From a virus (lineage: Duplodnaviria > Caudoviricetes), in the IMG/VR virus record IMGVR_UViG_3300010043_000010, positions 1 to 30,195 of that record: 30,195 nt of DNA, one strand, 5' to 3'. The notes beneath the pieces are model-generated. The model saw nothing but the letters and a program-made list of their open reading frames with translations, did no database searches and was not told where the DNA came from. Of the stretch, positions 1 to 22,996 are shown in pieces (position 1 is the stretch's first letter; each line of letters begins with the position of its first letter). The translations under genes and the position numbers were made by a program.

Positions 1-3000
1 GACAAGTACGGTGGCACGGGCGGCGACTACGATGCCGTAGGCCTGCTTCGCTCGACACTTGCGCCGCAGGACGTCGCCGCCACAGCCAGCCGGGCGCCGG
101 CGACCAGAACGACCGCCGAGCTCAGTGGGGGCGGGGCGCAGGGCACCCTCGGTGATCGAGCCCTCAACATCTTGGGTGGGGCCGCGGATGCCGCGCGGGC
201 GTTCGGTGATGACGCAGTCAAAGCGGTGCAGGCGGTGCTCGTGACCGAAGGCGGCCTCAACAATGCGCGCGGCGACAACGCCAAATCCGCAGGCCCACTG
301 CAATTCTTCGGCGAAGAGGGTGGCCGCGCGGGCCAACTGAACAACCTGGCCACCTTCCTGGGCACCAGCCTCGCTGGGGCCCGCGACTGGGTCGAGCAGC
401 ATCCGGTGGCGGCGGTGCAGTGGGCCCTCGGCACGCCAGACAACCCCGGCTACCTGGGCAAGGCAATCCTCGCCGGTCAACGCGCCGGCAAAGCAGGCGC
501 AGATCTGGCGACCTTCATCCAGGCCAACGGCCAGGTCAGCGTGAGTCCCGAACGCGCCGGTCAGAACTTTCGGAACCTGTTCGGCCAGGGCCAGGCCGCG
601 GTCACCTCGGCGGTCACGGGCGCCGGCGAGACGGTGAGCAGAACGGCCGGCGATGTCGCCTCGCGGGCACAGCAACTGGCCGACGACAGCCAGCGTCTGG
701 CCCGTGACAGTGCGGATCGCGCCCAGGCTGCGCTGGATCTGCTGAACCAGACGCGCCAGCGCATCAGTGCCGAGAACGAACGCTACAGCGCCGCGCGGCG
801 CGCGGACATCAATCGCACGCTGGCCGACATCATGCAACCGCGGCAGGTCCCGTTCGGCCTGCCGGCCGAGAGCCGCTCAGTGCTGGGGGAAGGGCCGTTC
901 GGGGCATTCCGCGCGCCCAGCCTCGAGATGCCGGGTGGGGTGCAGCAAACCATCGAACGGGCCGACGCGCTCTTACGTCAGCATCCCGAGCTGGGCGGCC
1001 CGTCCGTTGACTGGACCAGGCCCCTGGGCCCGCAGCTCGGCGTCGATCCGCTCGGGCAATTGCAGAGCGGCATCCCGGATATCGTTGAAGGCGTGCGCTC
1101 CGGCGACGCCGGCCGCGTCGCGACCGGCCTGCTGCAGGTCGCGGGTGCCGTCGGCTCAGCCCTGCCGGGCGGCGGCGGCCCAGGAGGACAGGCGGCTGCC
1201 CGCGCCACAACCGCCGCGCGCGCGGCACCAGCGGTGGCCGAAGCGGTTGCTCCCGCTGCGGCCGAGACGGGCCGGGCACTCGAGTTGGCTCCTCGGCTGG
1301 CCGAACCCGGCGGCTTCGTCGCGCCGACGGTCGAACCGGTCACTACTCCTACCACGCGCATGTACCACGGCACGGGTGCCGAATTCGAACGGCCGGCAGG
1401 TGCCCACTTCAACGAAGAGGGATTGTTTGGACCTGGGTACTACCTGACGAATGACGCGCGGATCGCCAGCAACTACGCGACCACGCGCGCCCCAGTCCAG
1501 GCACAAGCCTTCGACCAGCTCCAGGGCTGGCTGGCAGACGCTCGGGCACGCGGCAATCCTGAAGAAATCGCGTATCGCCAGAGTCAGATAGACAACCTTC
1601 TCGCCGCTGGGGAACCGGGCGCGAACGTACGCGCCCTTGATGTGCCGCAGAATCTGCGACTGCTGGACATGGAAGCACCGATCACGGCTACTGACATCAG
1701 GCGGATCGGTAACGCGATGGGCGATGCGGACGGGCGCTATTTCATCGACGAACTGACTCAGCGTCCGTTCGGCGAAACCGGCGAGGACGTGTACTCCTGG
1801 CTGACCGAGTGGGGTTGGCCGAAGAGCAGAATCAATCAGGTGCTTGCCGATGCCGGCTATGACGGCATCCAGTACGCCGGCGGCAAGCGCATTCCGATGT
1901 TGGGCGCGACGGGCCAGCCCATTGAGCACACGGCGGTAGTCGTGTTCCCAGCGTCGCTGAACAAGGTACGCAACGCGATCAGCGGCACGCAGGGTGGCCA
2001 GGCGAGCGCCGCCTACGCGATGCGCCTGGGCAGCACCGGGCTGGGTGCCGCCACCGGCTACGCCACTGCGCCTGAGGACGCCACGCAGGAGGAGCGGCTG
2101 AAGCGAGCGGCGATCGGGGGTGCCGCTGGCCTCGCCGCCCCGTCTGTTGTCAGCCTGGCCGCGCGCGATCCGCGTTTCGCGCTGCGCCTCAGCGGCGCAG
2201 CTGGTGGCCTCGTCAGCCAGGAAGCGACGATGACCGAGGAGGAGAAACGCAATCCGTTCGTGCGCGTGAGTCGTGACCTGAGCGGCCTGTTGCTTGGCAG
2301 CGCTGCACCGGCGCTGGCCGAGTCCGGCATCCGCGGTGTCGCCGCTACTGTGCGCGGTCGGGTGCCGGACCTGAACGACCTGGCCCAGATCCGACAGACG
2401 CTGGGTGCGCGTCAGATGAATCTACCGGGGACCGCAGGTCAGCCGATGACGCCCGGTGAGCTGATCAGCGCAGTCGGCAAGCAGAACCTGCTGGCCGGCA
2501 TCAAGCAACATGTGACGAACATCGGCAGCCAGATGGTCGAACTCGCGCGCACGCCCGTGCGCGCAGCCCTGGCTGGTCAGGGCGATCAGGCGTTGCTGGC
2601 GATGCGTGCAGGGATCAACGGCATCCCGGATGCGTTGAACGAATTCGCCCGCACCTGGACCAGCGGCATCAGCTCGACCGCCCAACCCGGCCAGCGCACC
2701 CAGGCCTGGCTGCCCGTGTTCCGCTTCCTGGGCGCGACCGATGATTTCTTCCGCGTGCTCGGCGCGCACATGGGCATGGCCACCGAAGCCCAGCGGCTGG
2801 TCAACGAGGCGGGCGCGAAGACGCCGCAGGCGATCCGCCAGGTCCTTGCCCAGAACGAGCAGCGCATCTTTCAGGCTGGCCAGCGTGAAGGGGCCGCGAG
2901 CGTGTTCCAGACCATGGGCATGCAGGGCGCGCAGGACACCATGACCCGTTTCGGTCGCTGGAAGAACGAGTGGCTCGGTGCCGTAGCGCAGAGCCCGGCT

Positions 3001-4185
3001 TGGCAAGACCGATTGTCGGCATATGGCAAACAGGGACTGGCTTTGCTCGTCGACGCGCTCGTGCCGTTTGCGGGCATGCCCGGCCGATTGTTCGATATCG
3101 GCATTGGGCGACTGCCGGTCATCGGTGAGACGCGCCGTTTTGCGGAACTCGCCATGGCCGCCAAACGTGGCGATAGCGCCGCAGCCCAGCGAGCGCTTGG
3201 CGAATTGGGTATGCAGAGCGTGCTCTCCTCAGTCATCCTGACCCAGACCCTGGCCGGCAATATCCGTGGTCCAGACGATCCCGACCATCCGAACAGCGCA
3301 CTTATTGGCGGGAACTGGGTCGACTATTCGGGCTGGGGCGCCTTTCAGTTGCCGTTGGCGATGCCAGCCGCAGCGATGGAAGAGTGGCGCAAGACCGGCA
3401 ATCGCCTGGGAGCCGGCGATCGCGAGTATCTGGGCGCGGTGATGAACGCTTGGGGCAAGACGCTGGTCAACTCGTACTACCTCAACGGCCTGTTCGATTT
3501 TCTCACGGCCGTCGGCGAGGGCCGACTCAGTGATGCGGTCGCCAAGACACTCACGAGCTACACCGACCGCAGCATCCCGTCAGGCTTCAACCAGGTCGAG
3601 CAGATGATCGACCAGAACGTGCGCGAGGTGAGCAAGCAGTTTCCGCAGTCGATCGTGGACCGCTGGAAGTCGCGCGTGCCGTACCTCGCCCAGACGTTGC
3701 CGGCGCAGGTCGAACCGACGACGGGTGCCGAACGTGCACGCGAGCGGCAAGGTCCGCTCGGCACGCTGTTGGGCGTCGAAACGTACCAGCAATCGCCGAT
3801 CGAGCAGGAGATCTACCGCTTGAATCGGCTGGGCTACGCGTTGCGCCCGCCGCGCGACTATCCACAGACTCTGAGTGTCGGGGGGGCGCAGATTCGACTG
3901 AGCCCCCAGGAGCAACATGCGCTGGCGCAGGGGCGCGGCGAATACATCGATCGCGTGCTCGGTGCGCGGATGCAATCGTCTTACTGGCGGACGTTGACCG
4001 ACGATCAGCGGGCACGGTTGATCGCGCGTGCATTGGACCAGGCATCGGCGCACAATGTGGTCACCTGGCGACGGATGACTCCGGTGAACGAGCAACGGGA
4101 TCGCATTGCCCGCGGGGAACGGGTCGTTGGCCGATTAGAAGAGCAGGGTGCGTTCGGGGGATTTACCGCGCCCGGCGCGGCTTGA
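1..4185 (+). CDS. Large internal virion/ejection 'polyvalent' protein (5'-truncated): lytic transglycosylase-like region, ADP-ribosyltransferase-like domain, hydrophobic hairpins
   Basis: Frame 1 is open from base 1 (DKYGGTGGDY...), so the start is upstream of the window. Motifs: AVLVTEGG...GDNAKSAGPLQF (SLT-like); MYHGT...GLFGPGYYLT...ASNYA...GYDGIQY...VVVF (ART-like, ~1360-1975); Gly/Ala-rich hydrophobic repeats at ~2010-2330. Confidence 0.75.
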   Translation, partial: DKYGGTGGDYDAVGLLRSTLAPQDVAATASRAPATRTTAELSGGGAQGTLGDRALNILGGAADAARAFGDDAVKAVQAVLVTEGGLNNARGDNAKSAGPLQFFGEEGGRAGQLNNLATFLGTSLAGARDWVEQHPVAAVQWALGTPDNPGYLGKAILAGQRAGKAGADLATFIQANGQVSVSPERAGQNFRNLFGQGQAAVTSAVTGAGETVSRTAGDVASRAQQLADDSQRLARDSADRAQAALDLLNQTRQRISAENERYSAARRADINRTLADIMQPRQVPFGLPAESRSVLGEGPFGAFRAPSLEMPGGVQQTIERADALLRQHPELGGPSVDWTRPLGPQLGVDPLGQLQSGIPDIVEGVRSGDAGRVATGLLQVAGAVGSALPGGGGPGGQAAARATTAARAAPAVAEAVAPAAAETGRALELAPRLAEPGGFVAPTVEPVTTPTTRMYHGTGAEFERPAGAHFNEEGLFGPGYYLTNDARIASNYATTRAPVQAQAFDQLQGWLADARARGNPEEIAYRQSQIDNLLAAGEPGANVRALDVPQNLRLLDMEAPITATDIRRIGNAMGDADGRYFIDELTQRPFGETGEDVYSWLTEWGWPKSRINQVLADAGYDGIQYAGGKRIPMLGATGQPIEHTAVVVFPASLNKVRNAISGTQGGQASAAYAMRLGSTGLGAATGYATAPEDATQEERLKRAAIGGAAGLAAPSVVSLAARDPRFALRLSGAAGGLVSQEATMTEEEKRNPFVRVSRDLSGLLLGSAAPALAESGIRGVAATVRGRVPDLNDLAQIRQTLGARQMNLPGTAGQPMTPGELISAVGKQNLLAGIKQHVTNIGSQMVELARTPVRAALAGQGDQALLAMRAGINGIPDALNEFARTWTSGISSTAQPGQRTQAWLPVFRFLGATDDFFRVLGAHMGMATEAQRLVNEAGAKTPQAIRQVLAQNEQRIFQAGQREGAASVFQTMGMQGAQDTMTRFGRWKNEWLGAVAQSPAWQDRLSAYGKQGLALLVDALVPFAGMPGRLFDIGIGRLPVIGETRRFAELAMAAKRGDSAAAQRALGELGMQSVLSSVILTQTLAGNIRGPDDPDHPNSALIGGNWVDYSGWGAFQLPLAMPAAAMEEWRKTGNRLGAGDREYLGAVMNAWGKTLVNSYYLNGLFDFLTAVGEGRLSDAVAKTLTSYTDRSIPSGFNQVEQMIDQNVREVSKQFPQSIVDRWKSRVPYLAQTLPAQVEPTTGAERARERQGPLGTLLGVETYQQSPIEQEIYRLNRLGYALRPPRDYPQTLSVGGAQIRLSPQEQHALAQGRGEYIDRVLGARMQSSYWRTLTDDQRARLIARALDQASAHNVVTWRRMTPVNEQRDRIARGERVVGRLEEQGAFGGFTAPGAA

Positions 4186-4190
4186 GCTAG

Positions 4191-5711
4191 ATGGCCACCT
4201 TAGACGAGCTTGAGAAACAACAGGGCACCGGCTGGACGGCCGGCACGCCCGTCCCCAAGCTCGACAGTCAGGGGCAGCCCGTTGCGGGCGTCTACACGGT
4301 CGTCCTGACCGGGCCGGAGGGCGCCTCGCGCGTCGCCACGATCTATGCGCCGGCACCGCCCGGCCCGACCCAGCTCACCAATCTGATCGAGACCGATCCG
4401 CGTAAAGCGACGTTCGACACGATGGCGGTCGAGGACACGATCAAACCGCCAACGAGGACGCCAGCCGAAACCAATGCGAACATCGCGCAAGCGGAGGCTG
4501 CAGCTGAGACCTCGAGAGCCCAGGCCGAGGTCGCCAGAGCGAACCTCGAGAAACTCAAGCAGGACCAGAAGCAACGCGAAGCGAACGATGCTGCGAATAA
4601 GGGCTACTTCACCAACGCAGAACTGGCCGACTTTGATCAGAAGGCCAAAGACCAGGGGCTGACGCAGCAGCAGATCGATATCCAGCGCACGATCGCCTCG
4701 AACAACAACAAGAACACCGAGATCTCGAACCAGATCGCGGCCCAGAACGCGGCGGTCGCGGCCCAGAACGCGGCCATCAATGACAAAGCCGTCAGTGCGC
4801 GCATCAAGTACGAAGAGGCGCAGGTCGATGACGCTGCACGGCAGCGCTTACTCGACGAGGCAAAGTTTGCGCGCGACAACGCCGACAAGGACATCGCCAA
4901 TAACCTCGCGCAAAGCAAGCTCGAGCTGGAGCAACTGACCCAGAAACAGGCCAACGAGAACGCGCGCCAGCAGAACGTACTGCGCGGCCAGGAACTGGCA
5001 CAACGCCAGGCCGAGGCGCAGCAGACCGCCCAGACCGCGGCGCAAACTGCGGCCACCACCGCAGCGGCGAGTGTGTATGGCACCGAGCGCCAGGCCCAGG
5101 GCCAGGCCGCTCAGACGGGGCAGAGTCTGCTCGCCAACCGCATGACCGCGGCCAACAATCTGCTCAACACCATCACCGGCAACGCCGCCGCCCTGGCGCA
5201 GGGCTCCGCCGGCCGCTTCGGCATGCTGGGCGGTGGGCTGCGCGCGGTGCCGCCAGGCCTCGGGCCAGGATTGATCTCGGGTGTCATGGGCACCACTGCC
5301 GAGGCCTACGGTGGCCAGGACACGCTCAATGCCGCCGCGCGCATGGTGCAGCAGGCGGGCGCCGACCTGACCACGCCGATGGCCCAGGCCGCGGTCGGCG
5401 TGCTGCAGCAGGTCTTCGAACGCCAGCACCAGCTCACCGGCCAGCCGGCGGCGCCCGTCGTGGCCCAGACCGCGGCACGGCAGACCCAGCAGAACAACGG
5501 ATTCACCTCGCCGGCGATGGTCTCGCCGCAGGACCTCGCGACACGCGCTGCCGCCGCACAGGAGGCCGCCGCTCGAGGGGCAGTCGCCCAGGCGATGTCG
5601 CCGCCGGCGTACGGGCCGGCGTCACCGATCGGCAACGTGCCGGGCCCGTGGCCGCAGTTCGCCGCCCCGACTACCGCGCCAGCGCCGACTACGGTCAACA
5701 TCAACGTCTGA
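4191..5711 (+). CDS. Putative DNA ejection/pilot protein, Gln/Ala-rich coiled coil
   Basis: 506 aa with long Q/A/N heptad stretches, including a 21-nt tandem repeat (AAQNAAV/AAQNAAI); adjacent to the large ejection protein. Confidence 0.6.
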   Translation: MATLDELEKQQGTGWTAGTPVPKLDSQGQPVAGVYTVVLTGPEGASRVATIYAPAPPGPTQLTNLIETDPRKATFDTMAVEDTIKPPTRTPAETNANIAQAEAAAETSRAQAEVARANLEKLKQDQKQREANDAANKGYFTNAELADFDQKAKDQGLTQQQIDIQRTIASNNNKNTEISNQIAAQNAAVAAQNAAINDKAVSARIKYEEAQVDDAARQRLLDEAKFARDNADKDIANNLAQSKLELEQLTQKQANENARQQNVLRGQELAQRQAEAQQTAQTAAQTAATTAAASVYGTERQAQGQAAQTGQSLLANRMTAANNLLNTITGNAAALAQGSAGRFGMLGGGLRAVPPGLGPGLISGVMGTTAEAYGGQDTLNAAARMVQQAGADLTTPMAQAAVGVLQQVFERQHQLTGQPAAPVVAQTAARQTQQNNGFTSPAMVSPQDLATRAAAAQEAAARGAVAQAMSPPAYGPASPIGNVPGPWPQFAAPTTAPAPTTVNINV

Positions 5712-6942: not shown

Positions 6943-7862
6943 CGATGTCCGATCGGGGCGTGCACCCGGACCTGATCGACGACGAGCCCGAACCGCCTGC
7001 GCGTGAGACGCCATCTCCTCGCCGCGGGCGGGCCGCTCCCCGTGCGGCTCCGCAGCCGGTGCCCGGACCTCCCTCCACGGCTGAGGTTGCGGAGCCGCCA
7101 GAGCAGCCGGCACCGGTCGAGGTGGAGGCCGAGGCGCAGACGTCGTCGCCGCCCGAGGAGCCCGACTGGTGGAAGCAGGCGAAAGAAGCGCCCGATCCAA
7201 AGACGGCACTCGCCCTGCTCGCGAAGAACATGCCGAAGCAAGACATGGAGCAGGATCCGACGCTCCAGGGTTGGATCGGCGACATGGGTGCGCGACGTGC
7301 GCGCGCCATGCTCGAGCGCTCCGAGCAGGACCGGGTCGACCAGCAGAAGCAGGAAGCGCTTGCCAATGGCGACTTCTACGGGCTCGGCCAACTGACCGCG
7401 CCCGAGCTGCGCGCGCATGCCGAGCAGCTCGCTGTGTCCCAGCAGGGTGCCCCGTTTATGGACGGCGTGACCCACTTCCAAGGCACGCTGCCGGTCGAGG
7501 TCCAGCAAGTCGTCCAGGGCAAGACCTACGGTGCTGGCAAGAGCTACGCCGAGGGCGTGTCCGAATATCTGGCAACAATCACTGAGGCCGCGGTCAGCCA
7601 CCGACTGAACGCGGCCGTCGAACAGGAGCTGAAGCGCCGCGAGCCTGCGCTGCGGAAAGCCTGGCTCAGCGAAAGCAACGGCAACCAGCCCGTACCCGAG
7701 CTGGAGGGCGGTCAGGCCACGCGCGTCCGCGAGATCACGGGCGAGCAGGTCGAGCGCATGACCCCGCAGGAGTACGAGACCTACTTCGATTCGAATGGGC
7801 GCCCGAAGCCGGGCGTGCGCTATCGGGTGACCGAGCGCGATATTCCGGTTCGCCAGCGCTGA
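6939..7862 (+). CDS. Capsid scaffolding protein
   Basis: Acidic, Pro-rich N-terminus, helical core and C-terminal 'VERMTPQEYE'; directly upstream of the major capsid gene. Confidence 0.7.
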   Translation: MTMSDRGVHPDLIDDEPEPPARETPSPRRGRAAPRAAPQPVPGPPSTAEVAEPPEQPAPVEVEAEAQTSSPPEEPDWWKQAKEAPDPKTALALLAKNMPKQDMEQDPTLQGWIGDMGARRARAMLERSEQDRVDQQKQEALANGDFYGLGQLTAPELRAHAEQLAVSQQGAPFMDGVTHFQGTLPVEVQQVVQGKTYGAGKSYAEGVSEYLATITEAAVSHRLNAAVEQELKRREPALRKAWLSESNGNQPVPELEGGQATRVREITGEQVERMTPQEYETYFDSNGRPKPGVRYRVTERDIPVRQR

Positions 7863-7906
7863 TCTCCGCCGGCTCAGGCCGGTGGCGCTGAAAGGAAGAG
7901 AAGCCA

Positions 7907-8761
7907 GTGGCCACTGGTGCAACGGAGTTTGTCGACAAGACCATTGCCGACGGCATATTCAGCCCCGACATCTGGTCGAAGCAGGTGCTGCGCGCGACCG
8001 AGAGCAACCTGGTGATCGCGCGTTCCGTCAACCGTGGCTTCGAGGATGACGCCTCGGTGGGCAAGACCGTCAAGGTAGCCAGCATCGGCAACCTGGCCGC
8101 GCGGGCAAAGGCGGAGAACACCGCCATCGTGTACGAGACTGTCGCCGAGACGGCCACCACCATCACACTGAATCTGTGGAGCTACGCGGCGGTCGGCATC
8201 GAGGACATCGTCAAAGTCCAGTCGATTGTGGACGTGCAGAACGAGTACCAGCGCAAGCTCGGCTACGCGATCGCGCGCGACATCGACACGGCGCTGGCGA
8301 CCGACTTCGCCGGCTTCTCGACGGTCATCGGGACGCTCGGCACCGCGGTGACCGACGCCAACGTGCTCGCCGCGGTCGCCGCCCTCGATAACGCCGACGC
8401 GCCGCAGGACGATCGATTCTTCATCATGTCCCCGGCCGAGAAGGTCGCCAAGCTCGCGCTGGATCGGTGGTCGAATGCGTTGTACATCGGCACCGGCGAT
8501 CAGCCCGTTCGGAACGGCATGCTCGGCGACATGTACGGGCTCAACCTGGCCGTCACCACCAACCTGGTCAAGCCGGCTGCGGGCCAGGCGCGCAATGCCA
8601 TCTTTCATCGCGACGCGCTCGCGTTGGTGGTGCAGAGGAGCCCGAAGACCCATTTGTTCTATGACATCGACTTCTTCACCTGGAAGCTGGCATCCGAGGT
8701 GATCTACGGCCATCAGGAGATGCGCGACCTGTTTGGCGTCCTGCTCAACGGTGCCAGCTAG
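7907..8761 (+). CDS. Major capsid protein (HK97 fold, P22 coat-like)
   Basis: Motifs PDIWSKQVL, GKTVKV, GYAIARDID, LDNADAPQDDRFFIMSP, AIFHRDALALVVQ, IYG; purine-rich RBS (aaaggaag) upstream. Confidence 0.88.
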   Translation: MATGATEFVDKTIADGIFSPDIWSKQVLRATESNLVIARSVNRGFEDDASVGKTVKVASIGNLAARAKAENTAIVYETVAETATTITLNLWSYAAVGIEDIVKVQSIVDVQNEYQRKLGYAIARDIDTALATDFAGFSTVIGTLGTAVTDANVLAAVAALDNADAPQDDRFFIMSPAEKVAKLALDRWSNALYIGTGDQPVRNGMLGDMYGLNLAVTTNLVKPAAGQARNAIFHRDALALVVQRSPKTHLFYDIDFFTWKLASEVIYGHQEMRDLFGVLLNGAS

Positions 8762-12931: not shown

Positions 12932-14350
12932 GTGGCAAGCATCCTCTCGGACGGCATGCTCGGCACGGCCTTCAGCCAGCCGGGCCGTCTTGTTCTCGGC
13001 AGCCCGCTGGCACCTGTTCCGCAGACGGTCAACCCGAACACGATCGCGACCGCGGAACAGGTCTATCAGCCGAACGTCCAGCGCTCGGTTGCCCCTGCGG
13101 CGATCGGCACCGCCGAGCAGGTCTTCGCTCCGACCGTCAAGCTCCAGGTGCAGCCGAACGCCATCGCGACGGCCGAACAGGTCTATCAGCCGAACGTCCA
13201 GCGGTCCGTTGCGCCGGCGACGATCACGACGGCGGAGCAGGTGTTCGCCCCGACGGTCACCCTCCAGGTTCGCCCGAACGCGATCGGGACCGCCGAGCAG
13301 GTCTTCCAACCGACGGTCCGGCTCCAGGTCCAACCCAACACCATCGCCACCGCCGAGCAGGTGTATCCGCCGGTCGTCACTGCGGCCGGGGCACCCCAGA
13401 CGGTCACGCCCAACACCATCGCGACGGCCGAGCAGGTCTTCGCTCCGACCGTCAAGCTCCAGGTCCAGCCGAATGGCATCGGTACCGCGGAGCAGGTCTT
13501 CGCGCCGACGCTCACCCTCCAGGTTCAGCCGAACGCCATCGCGACCGCCGTCCAGCTCTTTGCGCCGACGGTCATGCTGCAGGTCAACCCGAATGCGATA
13601 GCCAGCGGCGAGCAGGTCTTCGGGCCTATCTTCGGCCAGCAGATCCGGCCGGACACGATCGCGAGCGGCGTGATCGTGCGCGACCTGACGCTGGTCCCGA
13701 CGTGCTGGGACGAGCTGCCGTACAGCCAGCTCGAGAACTACACCTACAGCGGGCTGGAGGCCTTCGCCTACACCGCCCTGGAGATCGTCGCCTGCCTGGC
13801 CGTGCTGCCCGACCCGATCCCCTCGGCCGCGGTGGTCTTCGCGCCGACTCTGAGCGGGCCCGGTGCGCAGACGATCACGCCGAATGCGATCGGGACGGCG
13901 CTGCAGCTCTTTGCGCCCACGGTCACCCAGGCTGCGGTCCAGACCGTCCAACCGAACACGATCGCGACCGCGCAGCAGGTCTATCCGCCGACGGTCCAGA
14001 TCGTCGTTGCCCAGACGGTCAGCCCTGGCACGATCGCGAGCGCCGCGCAGGTTTACCCGCCGCAGAGCCTCGGCCTGAGCGTCTATCCCGATGCCATCGC
14101 GTCGCGTGCGCGCGTCTACGAGCCGGCGCTCAGCGCCACCCCGCGCCCGCCGCTGCCGCCGCTCGAGCCGCTCGTGCCGACGGCCCCCGAGCTGCCGCCG
14201 CTGGTGGGTGCCGGCCATGACGTGATGCCGCCGCTCCTGGTCGCCGCGCATGCCACGCTGCCCGAGTTGGTCGCCGTTCAGCGCAGTCCCCGGCCGCCTC
14301 TGGCTCCCGGCTCCCGTTCTGGTTTGCCGCCCCTGGTGCCAGTACCGTAA
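12932..14350 (+). CDS. Repetitive fibre-like virion protein (~16 copies of a 20-aa repeat, Pro-rich C-terminus)
   Basis: Repeat consensus xxxVxPNxIxTAEQVFAPTV. Confidence 0.75.
   Translation: MASILSDGMLGTAFSQPGRLVLGSPLAPVPQTVNPNTIATAEQVYQPNVQRSVAPAAIGTAEQVFAPTVKLQVQPNAIATAEQVYQPNVQRSVAPATITTAEQVFAPTVTLQVRPNAIGTAEQVFQPTVRLQVQPNTIATAEQVYPPVVTAAGAPQTVTPNTIATAEQVFAPTVKLQVQPNGIGTAEQVFAPTLTLQVQPNAIATAVQLFAPTVMLQVNPNAIASGEQVFGPIFGQQIRPDTIASGVIVRDLTLVPTCWDELPYSQLENYTYSGLEAFAYTALEIVACLAVLPDPIPSAAVVFAPTLSGPGAQTITPNAIGTALQLFAPTVTQAAVQTVQPNTIATAQQVYPPTVQIVVAQTVSPGTIASAAQVYPPQSLGLSVYPDAIASRARVYEPALSATPRPPLPPLEPLVPTAPELPPLVGAGHDVMPPLLVAAHATLPELVAVQRSPRPPLAPGSRSGLPPLVPVP
13019..14130 (+). repeat. Coding tandem repeat, 60-nt unit (~16 degenerate copies, one interruption)
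   Basis: For example, gaacaggtctatcagccgaacgtccagcg recurs exactly 120 nt later, and gagcaggtcttc recurs through the array. Confidence 0.85.
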
Positions 14351-18195: not shown

Positions 18196-18378
18196 ATGAC
18201 CTTCAGTGTGGGCCCAGGCGTGGCCCAGGCGATCGCCGACGCAAACGACGAGGCACGCTCCGATGAGGTGTACATCGTCAACGTCGAGGGCCGAAAAATT
18301 TCGGAAACGTATGCCAGAGACGCTCTCTATGTGTGGATCGAGGAGGACAACCGGACCAACCGGATCCCTTTCGAGTAA
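18196..18378 (+). CDS. 60-aa protein, probable N-terminal module of a frameshifted endolysin
   Basis: AGGAGG at 18186-18191 and ATG at 18196; ends in ATC CCT TTC GAG TAA. Confidence 0.75.
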   Translation: MTFSVGPGVAQAIADANDEARSDEVYIVNVEGRKISETYARDALYVWIEEDNRTNRIPFE

Positions 18379-18920
18379 AGGCACCCGAGCCGCCGCCGGC
18401 CCCGGAGATTGTCTGGTACGGCAGCCCGAACTTCTGGCATGGGCGGCCGAACGGCCCACCGATCGCGCTGGTGATCCACACGATGGGCGGCACGCTCGCG
18501 GGCTGTGACTCCTGGTTTGGCCAGTCGATGTCGCAGGTCAGTGCACACTATGGTGTCGGGTTGGGCGGCGCCATCCACCAGTACGTCCAGCTTGGCGATC
18601 GGGCCTGGGCCAACGGAGTGCTCGAGACTGGCAACCTCTGGCCTGGGCCCGACCACGTCAACCCGAACGACCTGACCGTGAGCGTCGAGACCGAGGACCT
18701 GGGCAATGGCAGCCAGCCGGTGACCGACGAGGAGTACGAGAGCACGCTCTACGCGTGCCAGCAGGCGATGAGTGCCTACCCCGAGACCATCGAGTGGCTG
18801 CTGAGCCACGACGACATCAGCCCGAGCTCGCGGCCCAATTGTTGCGGAGACAGGTGGAAGGAATCGGGGCGGTTCGTGAATCTCGCGCTTGCCCTGGGAT
18901 TGGGGACCGTTTCTTCGTGA
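18333..18920 (+). CDS. Endolysin, N-acetylmuramoyl-L-alanine amidase (Amidase_2 type); probably reached by -1 frameshift from the 18196 ORF
   Basis: SPNF...LVIHT, VSAHY, AWANG, SVETE, LSHDDI...NCCG Zn-amidase motifs. The GTG at 18333 has no RBS. Confidence 0.88.
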   Translation: MDRGGQPDQPDPFRVKAPEPPPAPEIVWYGSPNFWHGRPNGPPIALVIHTMGGTLAGCDSWFGQSMSQVSAHYGVGLGGAIHQYVQLGDRAWANGVLETGNLWPGPDHVNPNDLTVSVETEDLGNGSQPVTDEEYESTLYACQQAMSAYPETIEWLLSHDDISPSSRPNCCGDRWKESGRFVNLALALGLGTVSS

Positions 18921-19063
18921 ACCTGGCGTTACCGTCGATCACCGTGGGCTGGATCCTGGCTCTGCTGGTGCTGATCCTGTGTGTCGTGTTCATGGCCATC
19001 GGCCGCATCGACATCGTGCCCGGCGGGCTCATCGCGGGCGTCGCGCTCGCGCGGCTGCTCTGA
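18917..19063 (+). CDS. Putative holin (48 aa, two hydrophobic segments)
   Basis: GTGA overlap with the lysin stop; hydrophobic stretches ITVGWILALLVLILCVVFMAI and GGLIAGVALARLL. Confidence 0.6.
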   Translation: MNLALPSITVGWILALLVLILCVVFMAIGRIDIVPGGLIAGVALARLL

Positions 19064-19068
19064 CAACG

Positions 19069-19103
19069 AAAAACCCCGCCACCGAAGGGAATCGATGGCG
19101 GGG
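19069..19103 (-). terminator. Intrinsic terminator of the leftward operon (possibly bidirectional)
   Basis: Stem CCCCGCCA/TGGCGGGG with AAAAA on its left, giving a U-tract on the minus strand; lies between convergent genes. Confidence 0.75.
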
Positions 19104-19125
19104 CTGTGCGGGGGGAAAAGAACGG

Positions 19126-19446
19126 CTACGGGTATCCGTATCTGTTGACCGTGTAGGGCGTGTAACTCGGTGAGGAGTAGGTGTAATAGGTGTAGTTGCC
19201 GATGGTGTTCGAGGAGGCGTAGCTGGTGCCGCCATATGGCGACGTGTACGTGTAGTAGGTGTAGCTGCCGATGCGCTGGGCATAGCCAGAGCTGCCGTCC
19301 GAGCACGAGGCATAGGCGTAGCTGCTGCCGATGCTGGTGCTGTAGCAACTGTAGGCCGAGGCCGTTACAGGTGCGACAAGGCTGGCGACCAGCGCCCCGA
19401 GAACTAACGCGAAAGCGACTGAACGACGGTAGAGTCGAAGATGCAT
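19126..19446 (-). CDS. Secreted Tyr/Ser-rich protein (106 aa, Sec signal peptide)
   Basis: aagggag RBS; basic n-region, hydrophobic h-region and ASA cleavage motif; repeats IGSSYAY/IGSYTYYTY/IGNYTYYTY. Confidence 0.8.
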   Translation of the reverse strand: MHLRLYRRSVAFALVLGALVASLVAPVTASAYSCYSTSIGSSYAYASCSDGSSGYAQRIGSYTYYTYTSPYGGTSYASSNTIGNYTYYTYSSPSYTPYTVNRYGYP

Positions 19447-19571
19447 GACGAAGTCTCCCTTCGTTGTGCCAGGGGCGGGCCGTTTGGCGCGGTGCCGCCC
19501 CAAGAGTGGGGATGAGTCAGTTTACGGGAACGGGCTGCGTCTGAGCGTTCCGGTTCAGTAACAGCTCGCTA

Positions 19572-19603
19572 CCAATCGCGCTAACACGATTTAGGTCTAT
19601 CAA
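19572..19603 (+). repeat. dif-like 13-6-13 site A
   Basis: CCAATCGCGCTAA-cacgat-TTAGGTCTATCAA; overlaps the stop codon of the 19600 gene. Confidence 0.7.
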
Positions 19604-19986
19604 GCCGACTGGTACGACTCGCTGAAAGCGTCGGCTAATGCCTGCAATCGGCGGTCCCATTCGGCGTGCCACTCGTCCAATTGGCCGTATGTCATCGGAT
19701 AGAGCGTGTCGGGTGTACCCGGCTGGCCGCGCTCATGCCAGCGCAGAAACTCTCGGGCTGTATCGAGAACCGCCCGCAGTCGCCCGATCTCGGCCTGGAG
19801 ATTCTCAATTTCGATCTGCCAGATCTTGCCGCGAGTGACTGACCAATCGTAACCCTTGGTGAGCCGCTCGTTCTCGGCGCGGAGTTCGGTGAGTTCTGTC
19901 CGCTGGTCTTTACCATCCTCACGTTCTCGTTCGAGCGCGAACTCTAGCGCCTGATTCTCGGCACGGAGCCGTTCGTTGTCAGTCAT
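19600..19986 (-). CDS. Cassette gene 1: coiled-coil hypothetical protein (128 aa)
   Basis: ATG at 19986 (alternative TTG at 20007); LRAENQAL/LRAENERL repeats. Confidence 0.75.
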   Translation of the reverse strand: MTDNERLRAENQALEFALEREREDGKDQRTELTELRAENERLTKGYDWSVTRGKIWQIEIENLQAEIGRLRAVLDTAREFLRWHERGQPGTPDTLYPMTYGQLDEWHAEWDRRLQALADAFSESYQSA

Positions 19987-20007
19987 ATCGGCACTTAGGT
20001 CTATCAA
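19976..20007 (+). repeat. dif-like 13-6-13 site B
   Basis: TTGTCAGTCATAT-cggcac-TTAGGTCTATCAA. Confidence 0.75.
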
Positions 20008-20016
20008 ACGTAGCTG

Positions 20017-20262
20017 TCACTGGCGCCAGCCCAACATGCGACGGGTACGTATGACGGCTTCCTGAAGCTGTTCAATTTCCTGTTCCACGTTCAGCGGCTG
20101 TTCGACCCCATCGACCCGCACCGTCGCACCCCCCGCCGGGCCACCTAACGCGGCGCGCATACGCTGTAGCGCAACAAATGCCGTTGCAGCACTCGTCAGG
20201 CGTTCTAGATCCTCGCGCGGGATCTCCACTTTGTCAGACCTAACCACAATTAGCTCACTCAA
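20017..20262 (-). CDS. Cassette gene 2: hypothetical protein (~81 aa)
   Basis: ORF between sites B and C; the start (TTG 20262 or GTG 20247) lies inside site C. Confidence 0.65.
   Translation of the reverse strand: MSELIVVRSDKVEIPREDLERLTSAATAFVALQRMRAALGGPAGGATVRVDGVEQPLNVEQEIEQLQEAVIRTRRMLGWRQ
20231..20262 (+). repeat. dif-like 13-6-13 site C
   Basis: TTGTCAGACCTAA-ccacaa-TTAGCTCACTCAA. Confidence 0.75.
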
Positions 20263-20546
20263 GCGATCCAGCCGCGCTTGCGCATCTCAGCGAACCCAGA
20301 TCTTAGATAGGCCGCTTCGAACGGTGTGACATCGCCGCATCGTTGGCAGCGACAGCCGATGATCGCGTCCTTCGGCATCGTGGCCAGGACGCTTTCGTGA
20401 AGGTGGTCGATATTCCCGCAGCCCGAACATTGGATGTCAAGCATGTGGCTACCGTCGTGGCATGCGGGCGTCAGTGGCGTCGGAGTCTTGCCCGCATAGT
20501 TCGGGTTTTCCACGAAGCGGTGATGCTTGTTTGATCTAACTGCCAT
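20259..20546 (-). CDS. Cassette gene 3: Zn-ribbon-like hypothetical protein (95 aa)
   Basis: ATG at 20546 overlaps the upstream TAA, with a ggaggg RBS; CSGC...CQRC motifs. Confidence 0.75.
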   Translation of the reverse strand: MAVRSNKHHRFVENPNYAGKTPTPLTPACHDGSHMLDIQCSGCGNIDHLHESVLATMPKDAIIGCRCQRCGDVTPFEAAYLRSGFAEMRKRGWIA

Positions 20547-20558
20547 TAGTTTCCCTCC
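20527..20558 (+). repeat. dif-like 13-6-13 site D
   Basis: TTGTTTGATCTAA-ctgcca-TTAGTTTCCCTCC. Confidence 0.65.
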
Positions 20559-20911
20559 ACCCAGGCGAGCCACTTGTCGGCGAGCATGAGCACGTGCTCG
20601 GAGCGTACGTCCTGATGGGTCTGGCTCATGGCACCCAGGAAGGAAGCTGCGGCGCTGAGCACGGCCAGTCGCGTCGCCCGCTCGTCGAGCTGCGCTGACG
20701 CCACCTGAACGCTCGAGCTCGCAGATCCGCTGTCGACATGCACCAGGTCGCGGATAAAGCCCTTGGCATCGATCTCTACCCGCACGTGCGCGCCCGGCGG
20801 CGGTAGGGCCACCGGGCGGAACTTGCTGACGTTGAACCATTCGCCGTTCAGGCGCAGGCCGGTCGGGTTGGTCTGCTCGACCGTGCCCTCGACGGTGCTC
20901 GACGGGGTCAT
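20546..20911 (-). CDS. Hypothetical protein, possible OB-fold ssDNA-binding protein (121 aa)
   Basis: ATGA overlap; beta-rich N-domain (GLRLNGEWFNVSK...GAHVRVEID.KGFI) plus a helical C-domain. Function is inferred. Confidence 0.55.
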   Translation of the reverse strand: MTPSSTVEGTVEQTNPTGLRLNGEWFNVSKFRPVALPPPGAHVRVEIDAKGFIRDLVHVDSGSASSSVQVASAQLDERATRLAVLSAAASFLGAMSQTHQDVRSEHVLMLADKWLAWVEGN

Positions 20912-21114: not shown

Positions 21115-21461
21115 CAGAGCGCGGCCTCGACGATGACCTGCGGGCCAATCTTGCCTTCGCCGGGGAAGCGCACGGGCTCGACGCCCATCAGCTTGTCGCG
21201 GCAACGGTCGCACAGCGTCTCGTAGTTGCGCGGCGTGAGTCGGTCGCACAGCGGCGTCTTGCACAGACGGATGCTGCCCTCGAGCAGGGCATGGACCGTC
21301 TCCATCGGGTCGCGCGAGGTGATCGCGTGCACGTCCGAGAAGTTGATTTCCGAGCCGCCCCACATGGTGGGCTCGATGTTGCGCACCAGCGCGGGATTGA
21401 CGGTCACCACATGGCCCGCCGCGCGACCGCGGATGCGCCTGAACAACGGTACGCTAATCAT
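21114..21461 (-). CDS. FlbD-like N-domain plus C-terminal Zn finger (115 aa)
   Basis: gaggtg RBS before the ATG at 21461; 'VTVNPALVRNIE...INFSD...DPMETVHALL' and CKTPLC...CDRC. An earlier start at GTG 21545 is possible. Confidence 0.6.
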   Translation of the reverse strand: MISVPLFRRIRGRAAGHVVTVNPALVRNIEPTMWGGSEINFSDVHAITSRDPMETVHALLEGSIRLCKTPLCDRLTPRNYETLCDRCRDKLMGVEPVRFPGEGKIGPQVIVEAAL

Positions 21462-21498
21462 TGGGGTCTTCACCTCTTGTACAGGTGTTGGCTTCCAA

Positions 21499-21538
21499 GG
21501 CCCGTCCGCGTTGCTGCGCGGGCGGGTCTGTTTGTTCT
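21499..21538 (+). terminator. Putative rightward intrinsic terminator just left of attP
   Basis: 12-bp stem GGCCCGTCCGCG/CGCGGGCGGGTC (two G-U pairs) followed by tgtttgttct. Confidence 0.5.
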
Positions 21539-21567: not shown

Positions 21568-21618
21568 TATAGCGAATTAGTACCCATTGATTGCTCGGTG
21601 GTGTACTATTCGCACTAT
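21568..21618. other. Candidate attP for the serine integrase
   Basis: Imperfect dyad about TG at 21592-21593; arms read outward aTCaaTGGgtactaATTCGC / cTCggTGGtgtactATTCGC. Directly upstream of int. Confidence 0.6.
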
Positions 21619-21619
21619 T

Positions 21620-22996
21620 GTGACACAGTCCGCATTGAGCACCGAGGCCCTCCGGCCTGCGATCGGCATCGTTCGCGTCTCGCGCGTGGGCGATCGCGAA
21701 GCCGACCACTTCTTTTCGCCTCAGGACCAGAAGGCGCGCATGACCGCTGCCGCTCTGCCGAACGGCCTGAACGTTATCGAGTGGATCGAGGAGCTGGATG
21801 TCTCGGCTGGCTTGCCGCTGCGGCGACGCCGCGGCTTGCGACGAGGACTCGAGTTGATCGAGCTCGGCACGGCCCAGGTGCTGCTGGTGGCCTATTTCGA
21901 TCGCCTCGTGCGCAATCTGGGCGTCCAATACGAATTGTTCGAGCGCGTCCAGAAAGCGGGCGGCGCGGTCTATACGGCCGACGTGGGAGAGATGCGTATC
22001 GATACGCCGGCGGCCTGGCTTTCGTCCACCGTGCTGGGCACATTCGCCGAGTATTACCGACGTATGGCGGCTGAGCGGACCAGCGCACCGAAGAAACTCG
22101 CCGTGGAACGCGGCGTGCCGCCGTTCCCGAAGATCCCGCCGGGCTATCGTCGAGCGGCTGATGGGCGGCTTGAGGTCCACGAGGCTGAGGCAGCGGTGGT
22201 GCATAAAGCGTTCGAGATGCGCGCGCGCGGCGAACCCCTGCTGACCATTCGCGACTATCTGGCCAGTAAGGGCATCAAGCGGACCTACCGCGGGACGCAG
22301 GATCTGCTCGAGTCGAGGATCGTGCTCGGCGAACTGCACTTCGGTAAGCTGGCCAATCTCACAGCGCACACTCCGATCGTTGAGCTCAGCCTGTGGAAGC
22401 AGGCAGAACGCGCGCGCGCAACCGCCGGACGACGGACGACGACGCCGCGATTGCTGGCCCGACTGGGCGTGCTGCGCTGCGGAGGTTGTGGGTCGGCGCT
22501 GACCTGCACGCTGATCGCCAATGGGCAGGGCAAACGCTTCCCCTTCTATCGGTGCGGCATGCCAGCCGATTGCACGGGACGTGTATCGATCTCGGCCCCA
22601 CTCGCCGAAGAGCGCGTCGTCGCGCGGGTGCGCCAAGAGTTGCGGGACTCGTACGGGTCGGCATCCACTGATGCGCGCCTGGCTGAGGCCGAGCGGCACC
22701 TTGAGCACTGCGAAGCCGAACTCGATGCAGCCATCGACGTGCTGGCGCCCGTCAAGGATCGGCCATCCGCGCGGCGCCGGCTCGAGGACCTCCAGACGGC
22801 CGTCACGTCCGCGCAGGACGCCGTCGCGCGGTTACGCCCTGCGGCGACGGTGGCGCGGCGGTACAGTGCCGTCGGAGACTGGGATCGACTCAGCTTCGAG
22901 GCTCGGCGGGCGTTGGTTCGCGCGGTGCTTCGGGCGGCGATCGTGCGCAAGGGACGGGGCGCTGATCGCATCAGCTTCGAGGTCTTCGAGCAGTAG
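21620..22996 (+). CDS. int: Large serine recombinase (integrase)
   Basis: Resolvase domain IVRVS and DRLVR, recombinase domain (PPGYR), Zn ribbon CGGCG...YRC...C, coiled coil. Start uncertain (21587, 21620 or 21635). Confidence 0.93.
   Translation: MTQSALSTEALRPAIGIVRVSRVGDREADHFFSPQDQKARMTAAALPNGLNVIEWIEELDVSAGLPLRRRRGLRRGLELIELGTAQVLLVAYFDRLVRNLGVQYELFERVQKAGGAVYTADVGEMRIDTPAAWLSSTVLGTFAEYYRRMAAERTSAPKKLAVERGVPPFPKIPPGYRRAADGRLEVHEAEAAVVHKAFEMRARGEPLLTIRDYLASKGIKRTYRGTQDLLESRIVLGELHFGKLANLTAHTPIVELSLWKQAERARATAGRRTTTPRLLARLGVLRCGGCGSALTCTLIANGQGKRFPFYRCGMPADCTGRVSISAPLAEERVVARVRQELRDSYGSASTDARLAEAERHLEHCEAELDAAIDVLAPVKDRPSARRRLEDLQTAVTSAQDAVARLRPAATVARRYSAVGDWDRLSFEARRALVRAVLRAAIVRKGRGADRISFEVFEQ

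Follow-up and report, generated by a model that had tools for sequence, protein, structure and literature searches.

A conserved, ordered frame of two-armed sites that mark differences of whole gene blocks between related phages

A family of soil phages carries a conserved, ordered frame of mirror-armed joints, and related phages differ at these joints by whole gene blocks. Each joint is a 32-bp site with a 6-bp spacer, and the spacers fall into classes that follow a fixed order common to the phages, which is the main feature that the initial annotation of this DNA had missed. The feature is real and widespread, and the site architecture together with the pattern of junctions points, at the level of sequence, to an addressed exchange of gene cassettes. 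The sites are likely to be crossover points of one tyrosine recombinase that most of the array-bearing phages do not encode. No description of such phage arrays was found in the literature searched, in which coverage of subscription journals was thin and bioRxiv supplements lay outside.

The window, that is the whole stretch of DNA analyzed, is a 30,195-base phage record that is ~75% complete and includes capsid, tail, amidase and serine integrase genes. The four 32-bp sites proposed previously were verified in position and letter by letter (Table 1). The motif CTAA-N6-TTAG occurs three times in the window, always within the cluster, compared to an expectation of 0.03, and at least three occurrences arose in 0 of 100 shuffles; in site B one inner arm is a variant. 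Scanning of the 30,195 bases with a weight matrix retrieved exactly these four sites and 0–1 in each of 10 shuffles. A possible fifth site at the end of the holin-like gene (about 19050-19080) has no score with this matrix and may be a relic. The dif- or loxP-like form that had been suggested matches the architecture of tyrosine recombinase sites, with 13-bp arms and a 6-bp center. The arm symmetry of 11 in 13 positions that had been reported holds for the consensus, but not for single sites in which 7, 8, 9 and 5 of 13 positions pair. Read on the minus strand, the array runs from D (TGGCAG) through C (TTGTGG) and B (GTGCCG) to A (ATCGTG).

Table 1. Sites of the array in the window and the genes in and around it.
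Feature	Position	Strand	Remarks
Site D	20527..20558	-	Spacer TGGCAG, class I; first of array; left arm degenerate
Site C	20231..20262	-	Spacer TTGTGG, class II
Site B	19976..20007	-	Spacer GTGCCG, class IV, the commonest class (31 loci)
Site A	19572..19603	-	Spacer ATCGTG, class Vb; last of array; spacer also in L002 and L066
Slot I-II (D-C) gene	20259..20540	-	93 aa; two CxxC motifs; putative Zn-binding
Slot II-IV gene	20017..20262	-	76-81 aa; without Pfam, PHROG or PADLOC family
Slot IV-Vb gene	19600..19986	-	128 aa; by eye resembles a coiled coil; without family; ATG inside right arm of site B
~520-bp block past site A	19066..19584	-	Absent from relative L002
121-aa conserved gene, upstream of array	20546..20911	-	In array-bearing and array-free relatives
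Amidase endolysin and small membrane (holin-like) gene	18333..19063	+	Convergent on array
Large serine integrase	21587..22996	+	Not a candidate enzyme for these sites

Each interval between sites holds one short open reading frame, as the initial annotation had it, and all three frames are on the minus strand. The cassettes are richer in AT as was also proposed, with 60.8, 62.3 and 60.6% GC compared to 66.4% for the window, but the difference of 4–6 points is modest and 8 of 100 300-bp windows of the record likewise fall below 62% GC. Site D includes the upstream gene's stop codon together with the ATG at which the following gene starts. The D-C protein has 10 relatives with 70–77% identity; its first residues are encoded by site D and are missing from the relatives, one of which starts with residues that a right arm would encode. 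PADLOC gave no convincing match, and an amidase search brought up no more than one distant protein besides the relative already known. In the relative L002 the ATCGTG spacer abuts the end of the holin-like gene directly, whereas the window has a ~520-bp block that starts at that spacer and comprises a 106-aa Tyr/Ser-rich gene (19126-19446) and a terminator-like hairpin (19072-19105). Elsewhere on the plus strand of the window, positions 21461-21532 match a PtaRNA1-like antisense RNA in Rfam with 39.5 bits (gathering score 47; E 1.2e-5), which has a terminator hairpin and is located across from the leader of the operon that runs on the minus strand and finishes in the array. Positions 12932-14350 (+) encode a 472-aa protein with about 15 imperfect 20-residue repeats, and positions 172-4185 (+) a 1337-aa protein, putatively internal to the virion, that weakly matches an ADP-ribosyltransferase (ART-PolyVal) below the cut-off.

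Further loci were gathered by pattern scans of viral and metagenome contigs, by a search with a neighboring recombinase and by a capsid search. A GC filter removed AT-rich pattern matches and loci that lacked a second arm, both of which were regarded as chance matches, the near-identical twins L044, L049, L053, L058 and L092 were dropped before every count, and L080, which is the window's own DNA, was left out. Of the 49 site-bearing loci that remained, 38 have at least two strong sites, a count that includes L079, a 97% twin of L075 that was kept in the spacer-order count and omitted from the flank, repeat-group, slot-homology and alignment-end analyses. The arrays have in common the arm consensus TTGTCAGACCTAA, which holds for either side. 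Where whole records are available, the sites lie in a single cluster of 0.5–3.2 kb per genome. The capsid search identified 146 viral records that encode this capsid type; a spacer-blind sample from the best 80 of these 146 matches comprised 27 records longer than 21 kb that were new to the set. Matches were present in 17 of the 27, and at least one site, in some cases a single one, was present in 11 of the 16 that are near-complete. The other five near-complete relatives of these 16 had no array. In the array-free G032 a homologue of the window's D-C gene (L266, about 7500-8600) has relic arms at its start and end. The arms of the arrays accompany at least two capsid types that are unrelated. 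In annotated plasmids and phages, matches were at chance level only, and three matches in genome contigs had no second arm or array where these were examined.

Matches in G026 and G027 (L005, L006, L020, L021, L023) were excluded, those in G026 being read as TTGACA-18-hexamer promoters. This unrelated phage has five promoter-like elements of the form TTGACA-18 nt-TAnnnT upstream of genes (L149:12817, L150:3448/6728/7642, L151:11283), with a CTAAC...GTTAG palindrome in the promoter spacer that resembles one arm of the sites. The G001 record ends (L100:101 and L102:1465) each lie exactly 100 bases beyond a site and probably belong to one slot gene broken in assembly. By eye, a perfect left arm plus GTGCCG stands directly before a look-alike of a tRNA 3'-half in L050:115-133 and L074:5001-5019; ARAGORN finds no tRNA in this stretch, and the resemblance may be due to chance.

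The spacers differ within one array and recur between arrays. They were sorted into class I (TGGTGC and variants), class II (TTGTTG, TTGTGG), class III (AGATGG), class IV (GTGCCG), class V (CTGCCC and variants, or ATCGTG, or GGAGTG) and class VI (GAAATA, GAACTA). When exact spacers of strong sites were compared, 29 spacer pairs yielded 117 observations of which 0 were reversed, in contrast to a mean of 36.5 reversed and a minimum of 22 in 2000 permutations. In L248 a single weak site departs from the order of L257. The GTGCCG spacer is exact in 8 of 15 capsid-selected regions, and its arms share just 9.2 and 7.3 of 13 bases. As the order can be inherited by descent and the loci are related and non-independent, the order demonstrates a conserved frame and not exchange. 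L025, L026, L027, L255 and L256 have these arms around a second spacer set (GGCCAA, AGCGAG, ATCCCG, GAGCAC), which possibly is a separate exchange group.

The left arms and the reverse-complemented right arms fit one consensus, the right arm merely being more degenerate. The arms of 126 unique sites do not covary (942 pairs compared to 941 after shuffling) and thus are not attC hairpins. An RNA or single-strand hairpin was rejected on the same lack of covariation and on folding, as none of eight folds clearly beat shuffles (z -1.7 to +1.4), and Rfam gave no match at the sites of the window. The arms behave like two independent protein half-sites. An attP function for the phage's own integrase also was rejected, as the arrays are accompanied variously by a serine integrase, a tyrosine integrase or none that was detected, and P0001 relatives lack a site after the recombinase gene. 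The description of the array as integron-like could not be upheld, since the sites are not interchangeable, their order is invariant and there is no attC-like folding.

The initial annotation had envisaged single-gene cassettes, resembling those of integrons or dif modules, that host XerC/D excises and inserts between neighboring sites. The 6-bp center and the TAA/TTA inner ends suit such a process, two junctions (L025/L256 and L027/L256) resemble the loss of a slot between unlike neighbors, and same-spacer duplicates suggest occasional insertion. Nevertheless, this explanation is considered very improbable: neighboring spacers differ, and xrs sites without closely related centers did not recombine in the Acinetobacter study (PMC11705084); furthermore, the order is never shuffled, and there are neither distinct C and D arms nor hairpins. 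The attribution to host XerC/D specifically was not supported: both arms fit one consensus, and the two predicted Dehalococcoides dif rows that were compared, out of three (PMC3025954), are unlike the arms.

Independent half-sites also would suit operators, so that the arms might bind a phage or host repressor that silences an accessory operon, with gene swaps incidental. The position at gene junctions in one orientation is that of stoperators (PMC3029335), and a similar arm is found within the sigma-70-like promoters of the unrelated phage G026. However, promoter calls over 2.9 kb produced a single weak promoter, starting in site B and at chance level (1 found compared to 0.6 expected), and none at the other three sites. 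The confinement of the sites to one 0.5–3.2 kb cluster per genome speaks against operators, as do the HTH_3 proteins, whose recognition regions differ, which are found in array-free phages too and which are unmatched in the array-bearing G003 and G004. Moreover, an operator has no need of exact, ordered spacers. Repressor binding is judged a very improbable basis for the sites.

The content of the arrays turns over within this frame. The 93 inter-site segments have a median length of 394 bp and mostly unrelated contents. Homologous pairs in the same slot numbered 1 of 91 in III-IV, 0 of 21 in II-IV, 1 of 45 in IV-V, 3 of 55 in II-III and 8 of 66 in I-II. Where segments are homologous, they are in overlapping slots in 29 of 37 pairs compared to 39% expected, and in disjoint slots in 8 of 37. 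Pfam matches were absent from 106 of 117 slot ORFs, and the other 11 include four DNA methyltransferases and two SLOG proteins.

Among all cross-phage pairs with full flanks, 10 pairs of sites have a homologous 50-bp flank and every one of these shares a single flank. The arm on the shared side matches at 11–13 of 13 positions, and the other arm at 5–12. Five of the ten pairs have the same spacer, one has variants of the same class and four have unlike spacers; two of the latter four (L025/L256, L027/L256) look like the loss of one slot with either spacer kept. The L091 and L093 loci are 99% identical over 504 bp and diverge four bases past the AGATGG spacer, and L037 and L088 have DNA in common from within site I as far as site II. 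Alignment through whole sites was confined to the close pair L042/L246. High-identity alignments in the arrays have 35 ends, of which nine lie inside a site in both partners and in the same register (positions 10-26 of 32). Ends within a site of at least one partner numbered 14 of 35 compared to 5.9 expected, a comparison in which the ends are non-independent and site-less junctions provide no control. In support of the initial annotation, related phages differ by gene blocks that start or end at a spacer, but 21 of the 35 ends are outside sites. Many slots hold several genes whose junctions lack sites, gene junctions in accessory regions serve as breakpoints in any case, and recombination of other kinds clearly takes place in the array regions as well. 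Among sequencing runs, one of DNA, possibly the source, and none of RNA was listed for this sequence; contigs of the DNA run contained no joints and were uninformative. In L042 a 393-bp gene is duplicated (81%) in two slots, at 3969-4361 and 5073-5465, and L246 is without the DNA between these copies; the sites played no part in this deletion. The slot genes at the L102 end and in L155, L158, L140, L075 and L036 have in common a 24-base stretch that encodes a short coiled-coil motif and possibly is a point of within-gene shuffling.

Of 127 strong sites, 103 contain the stop codon of the ORF upstream, and a start for the ORF downstream is present in 78 of 123; these counts have no null and concern arms that are stop-rich. 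Spacers of classes I and III provide start codons, and this could keep them conserved even if no recombination took place. The sites might be conserved boundary sequences that package stop and start codons and that recombine through short homology or annealing with no site-specific enzyme. Recombination at boundary sequences is a standing proposal (PMC3029335), and some junctions join unlike spacers or are located outside sites. Still, linkers of this type would leave unexplained that both arms follow one inverted consensus, that exact spacers stand beside variable arms, and that the spacer is kept at the terminal sites of classes V and VI, which have no downstream gene. They also would not account for the behavior of repeated spacers. 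Same-spacer repeats were noted in 14 arrays as 16 groups, 12 of which rest on weak or relaxed calls and four on the strict scan. Two copies that both reach at least 20 bits were found in 0 of 16 groups, compared to at least 20 bits in 77% of 115 single-copy sites. The absence of two intact same-spacer copies is predicted by a recombinase that deletes between intact matching sites. Overall, passive boundary sequences are considered an unlikely, albeit not negligible, explanation.

The reading which is preferred, and regarded as rather probable, is spacer-addressed recombination between phage genomes by a single tyrosine recombinase, and not an integron. In the mechanism that we infer, a single enzyme would bind the two 13-bp arms, and strand exchange within the 6-bp spacer would be efficient only when spacers match. 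Unlike spacers in one genome would block deletion of the intervening genes, and matching spacers in a co-infecting phage or resident prophage would permit an in-register crossover. Two crossovers would replace one slot and one crossover would swap genome arms. As the site carries an upstream stop and often a downstream start, a gene that arrives would be coupled in translation from the outset. Insertion at a matching spacer would now and then duplicate that spacer, and duplicates would persist only with one copy damaged. A more far-reaching proposition is that soil phages with unlike capsids, integrases and repressors share a natural multi-address cassette-exchange standard in which a trans-acting recombinase, five to six orthogonal ordered spacers and sites that supply stops and starts would allow slot-by-slot trading by any member; the chances for and against this proposition appear evenly matched.

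The claim that a serine integrase is the only integrase in the window agreed with the searches, which detected that integrase and no PF00589 match in this ~75% complete record. In a set of 15 near-complete records, eight are without PF00589 and all eight carry arrays. Among the 16 capsid-selected near-complete records PF00589 is present in three, one of which is array-free, and most capsid-selected records without PF00589 carry a serine recombinase. Crude ORF calls of 28 records were clustered in the search for a universal phage-encoded binder, and no ORF family common to all array-bearing phages emerged. Given the array phages that are free of PF00589, the lack of a common ORF family, the unlike capsids and the variable HTH_3 proteins, the binder is likely to be supplied in trans. 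The source of the recombinase is likely the host, probably a member of the Chloroflexota, or another prophage. An enzyme encoded by the host is more likely, and the other candidate is the 308-aa Xer-like P0001 family acting in trans. All six records with this P0001 family carry sites, which is not above the base rate of the phage family, and a site directly follows the recombinase gene in G002 only and not in five relatives with 76–82% identical enzymes. The sole clue to the host is a protein 70% identical to P0001 that NCBI labels Chloroflexota; assignment by atlas taxa was ambiguous.

Phage mosaicism usually is ascribed to illegitimate or short-homology recombination, a view that derives from the lack of conserved boundaries at most junctions (PMC3029335). 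Here boundaries exist, have the form of recombinase sites and bear an address, so that a site-specific route to mosaicism is open to direct testing. If the cassette-exchange standard is true, mosaicism in phages would have a site-specific engine, and orthogonal sites for recombination would be at hand as a ready-made set. The natural spacers would also be a candidate multiplex tool, provided that the enzyme is found.

Integrons are arrays of cassettes that depend on IntI, attI and attC, with core sites RYYYAAC/GTTRRRY. The phage arrays resemble these in being tandem small genes, mostly of unknown function, bounded by a recurring site whose inner ends are similar to the integron cores. Unlike integrons, they have no IntI (no PF00589 in the window or in the eight near-complete array records) and no attC hairpin, and their sites are of a fixed 32 bp, are not interchangeable and are invariant in order. 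The Cre/loxP spacer is 8 bp, and Cre/lox sites with heterospecific spacers are used in engineered cassette exchange. The phage sites share with loxP the 13-bp inverted arms and an asymmetric, directional spacer, and share with engineered exchange the use of unlike spacers in one molecule that match between molecules. They differ in that the spacer is 6 bp, the system is natural with five to six ordered classes and no cognate recombinase adjoins most arrays.

Like stoperators and boundary sequences, the sites are short repeats at gene junctions, oriented with transcription and proposed as points of mosaic exchange. Stoperators of mycobacteriophages (PMC3029335) are asymmetric 13-mers that are distributed genome-wide and are specific to each immunity group, whereas the phage sites are two-armed, clustered and common to unlike phages. 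Moreover, the sequence of a stoperator follows the phage's own repressor, but here the same arms accompany different or unmatched HTH_3 proteins. The closest tested precedent is the matched-center exchange of the Acinetobacter xrs/pdif sites. XerC/XerD act on these sites in cointegration and resolution between matched central regions, inter-plasmid recombination took place only with closely related centers, and cassettes were not deleted (PMC11705084). As with pdif/xrs, several sites per replicon flank accessory genes, the center is 6 bp and the enzyme is not encoded by the element; in the proposed model exchange likewise would occur between replicons where centers match, although the phage junctions comprise five with the same spacer, one with the same class and four with unlike spacers. 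In contrast to the plasmid sites as described there, which have separate XerC and XerD arms and often are paired in opposed orientation, the sites reported here form arrays in phages, have one 13-bp consensus for both arms, are all in direct orientation, carry stop and start codons and present their spacer classes in one order.
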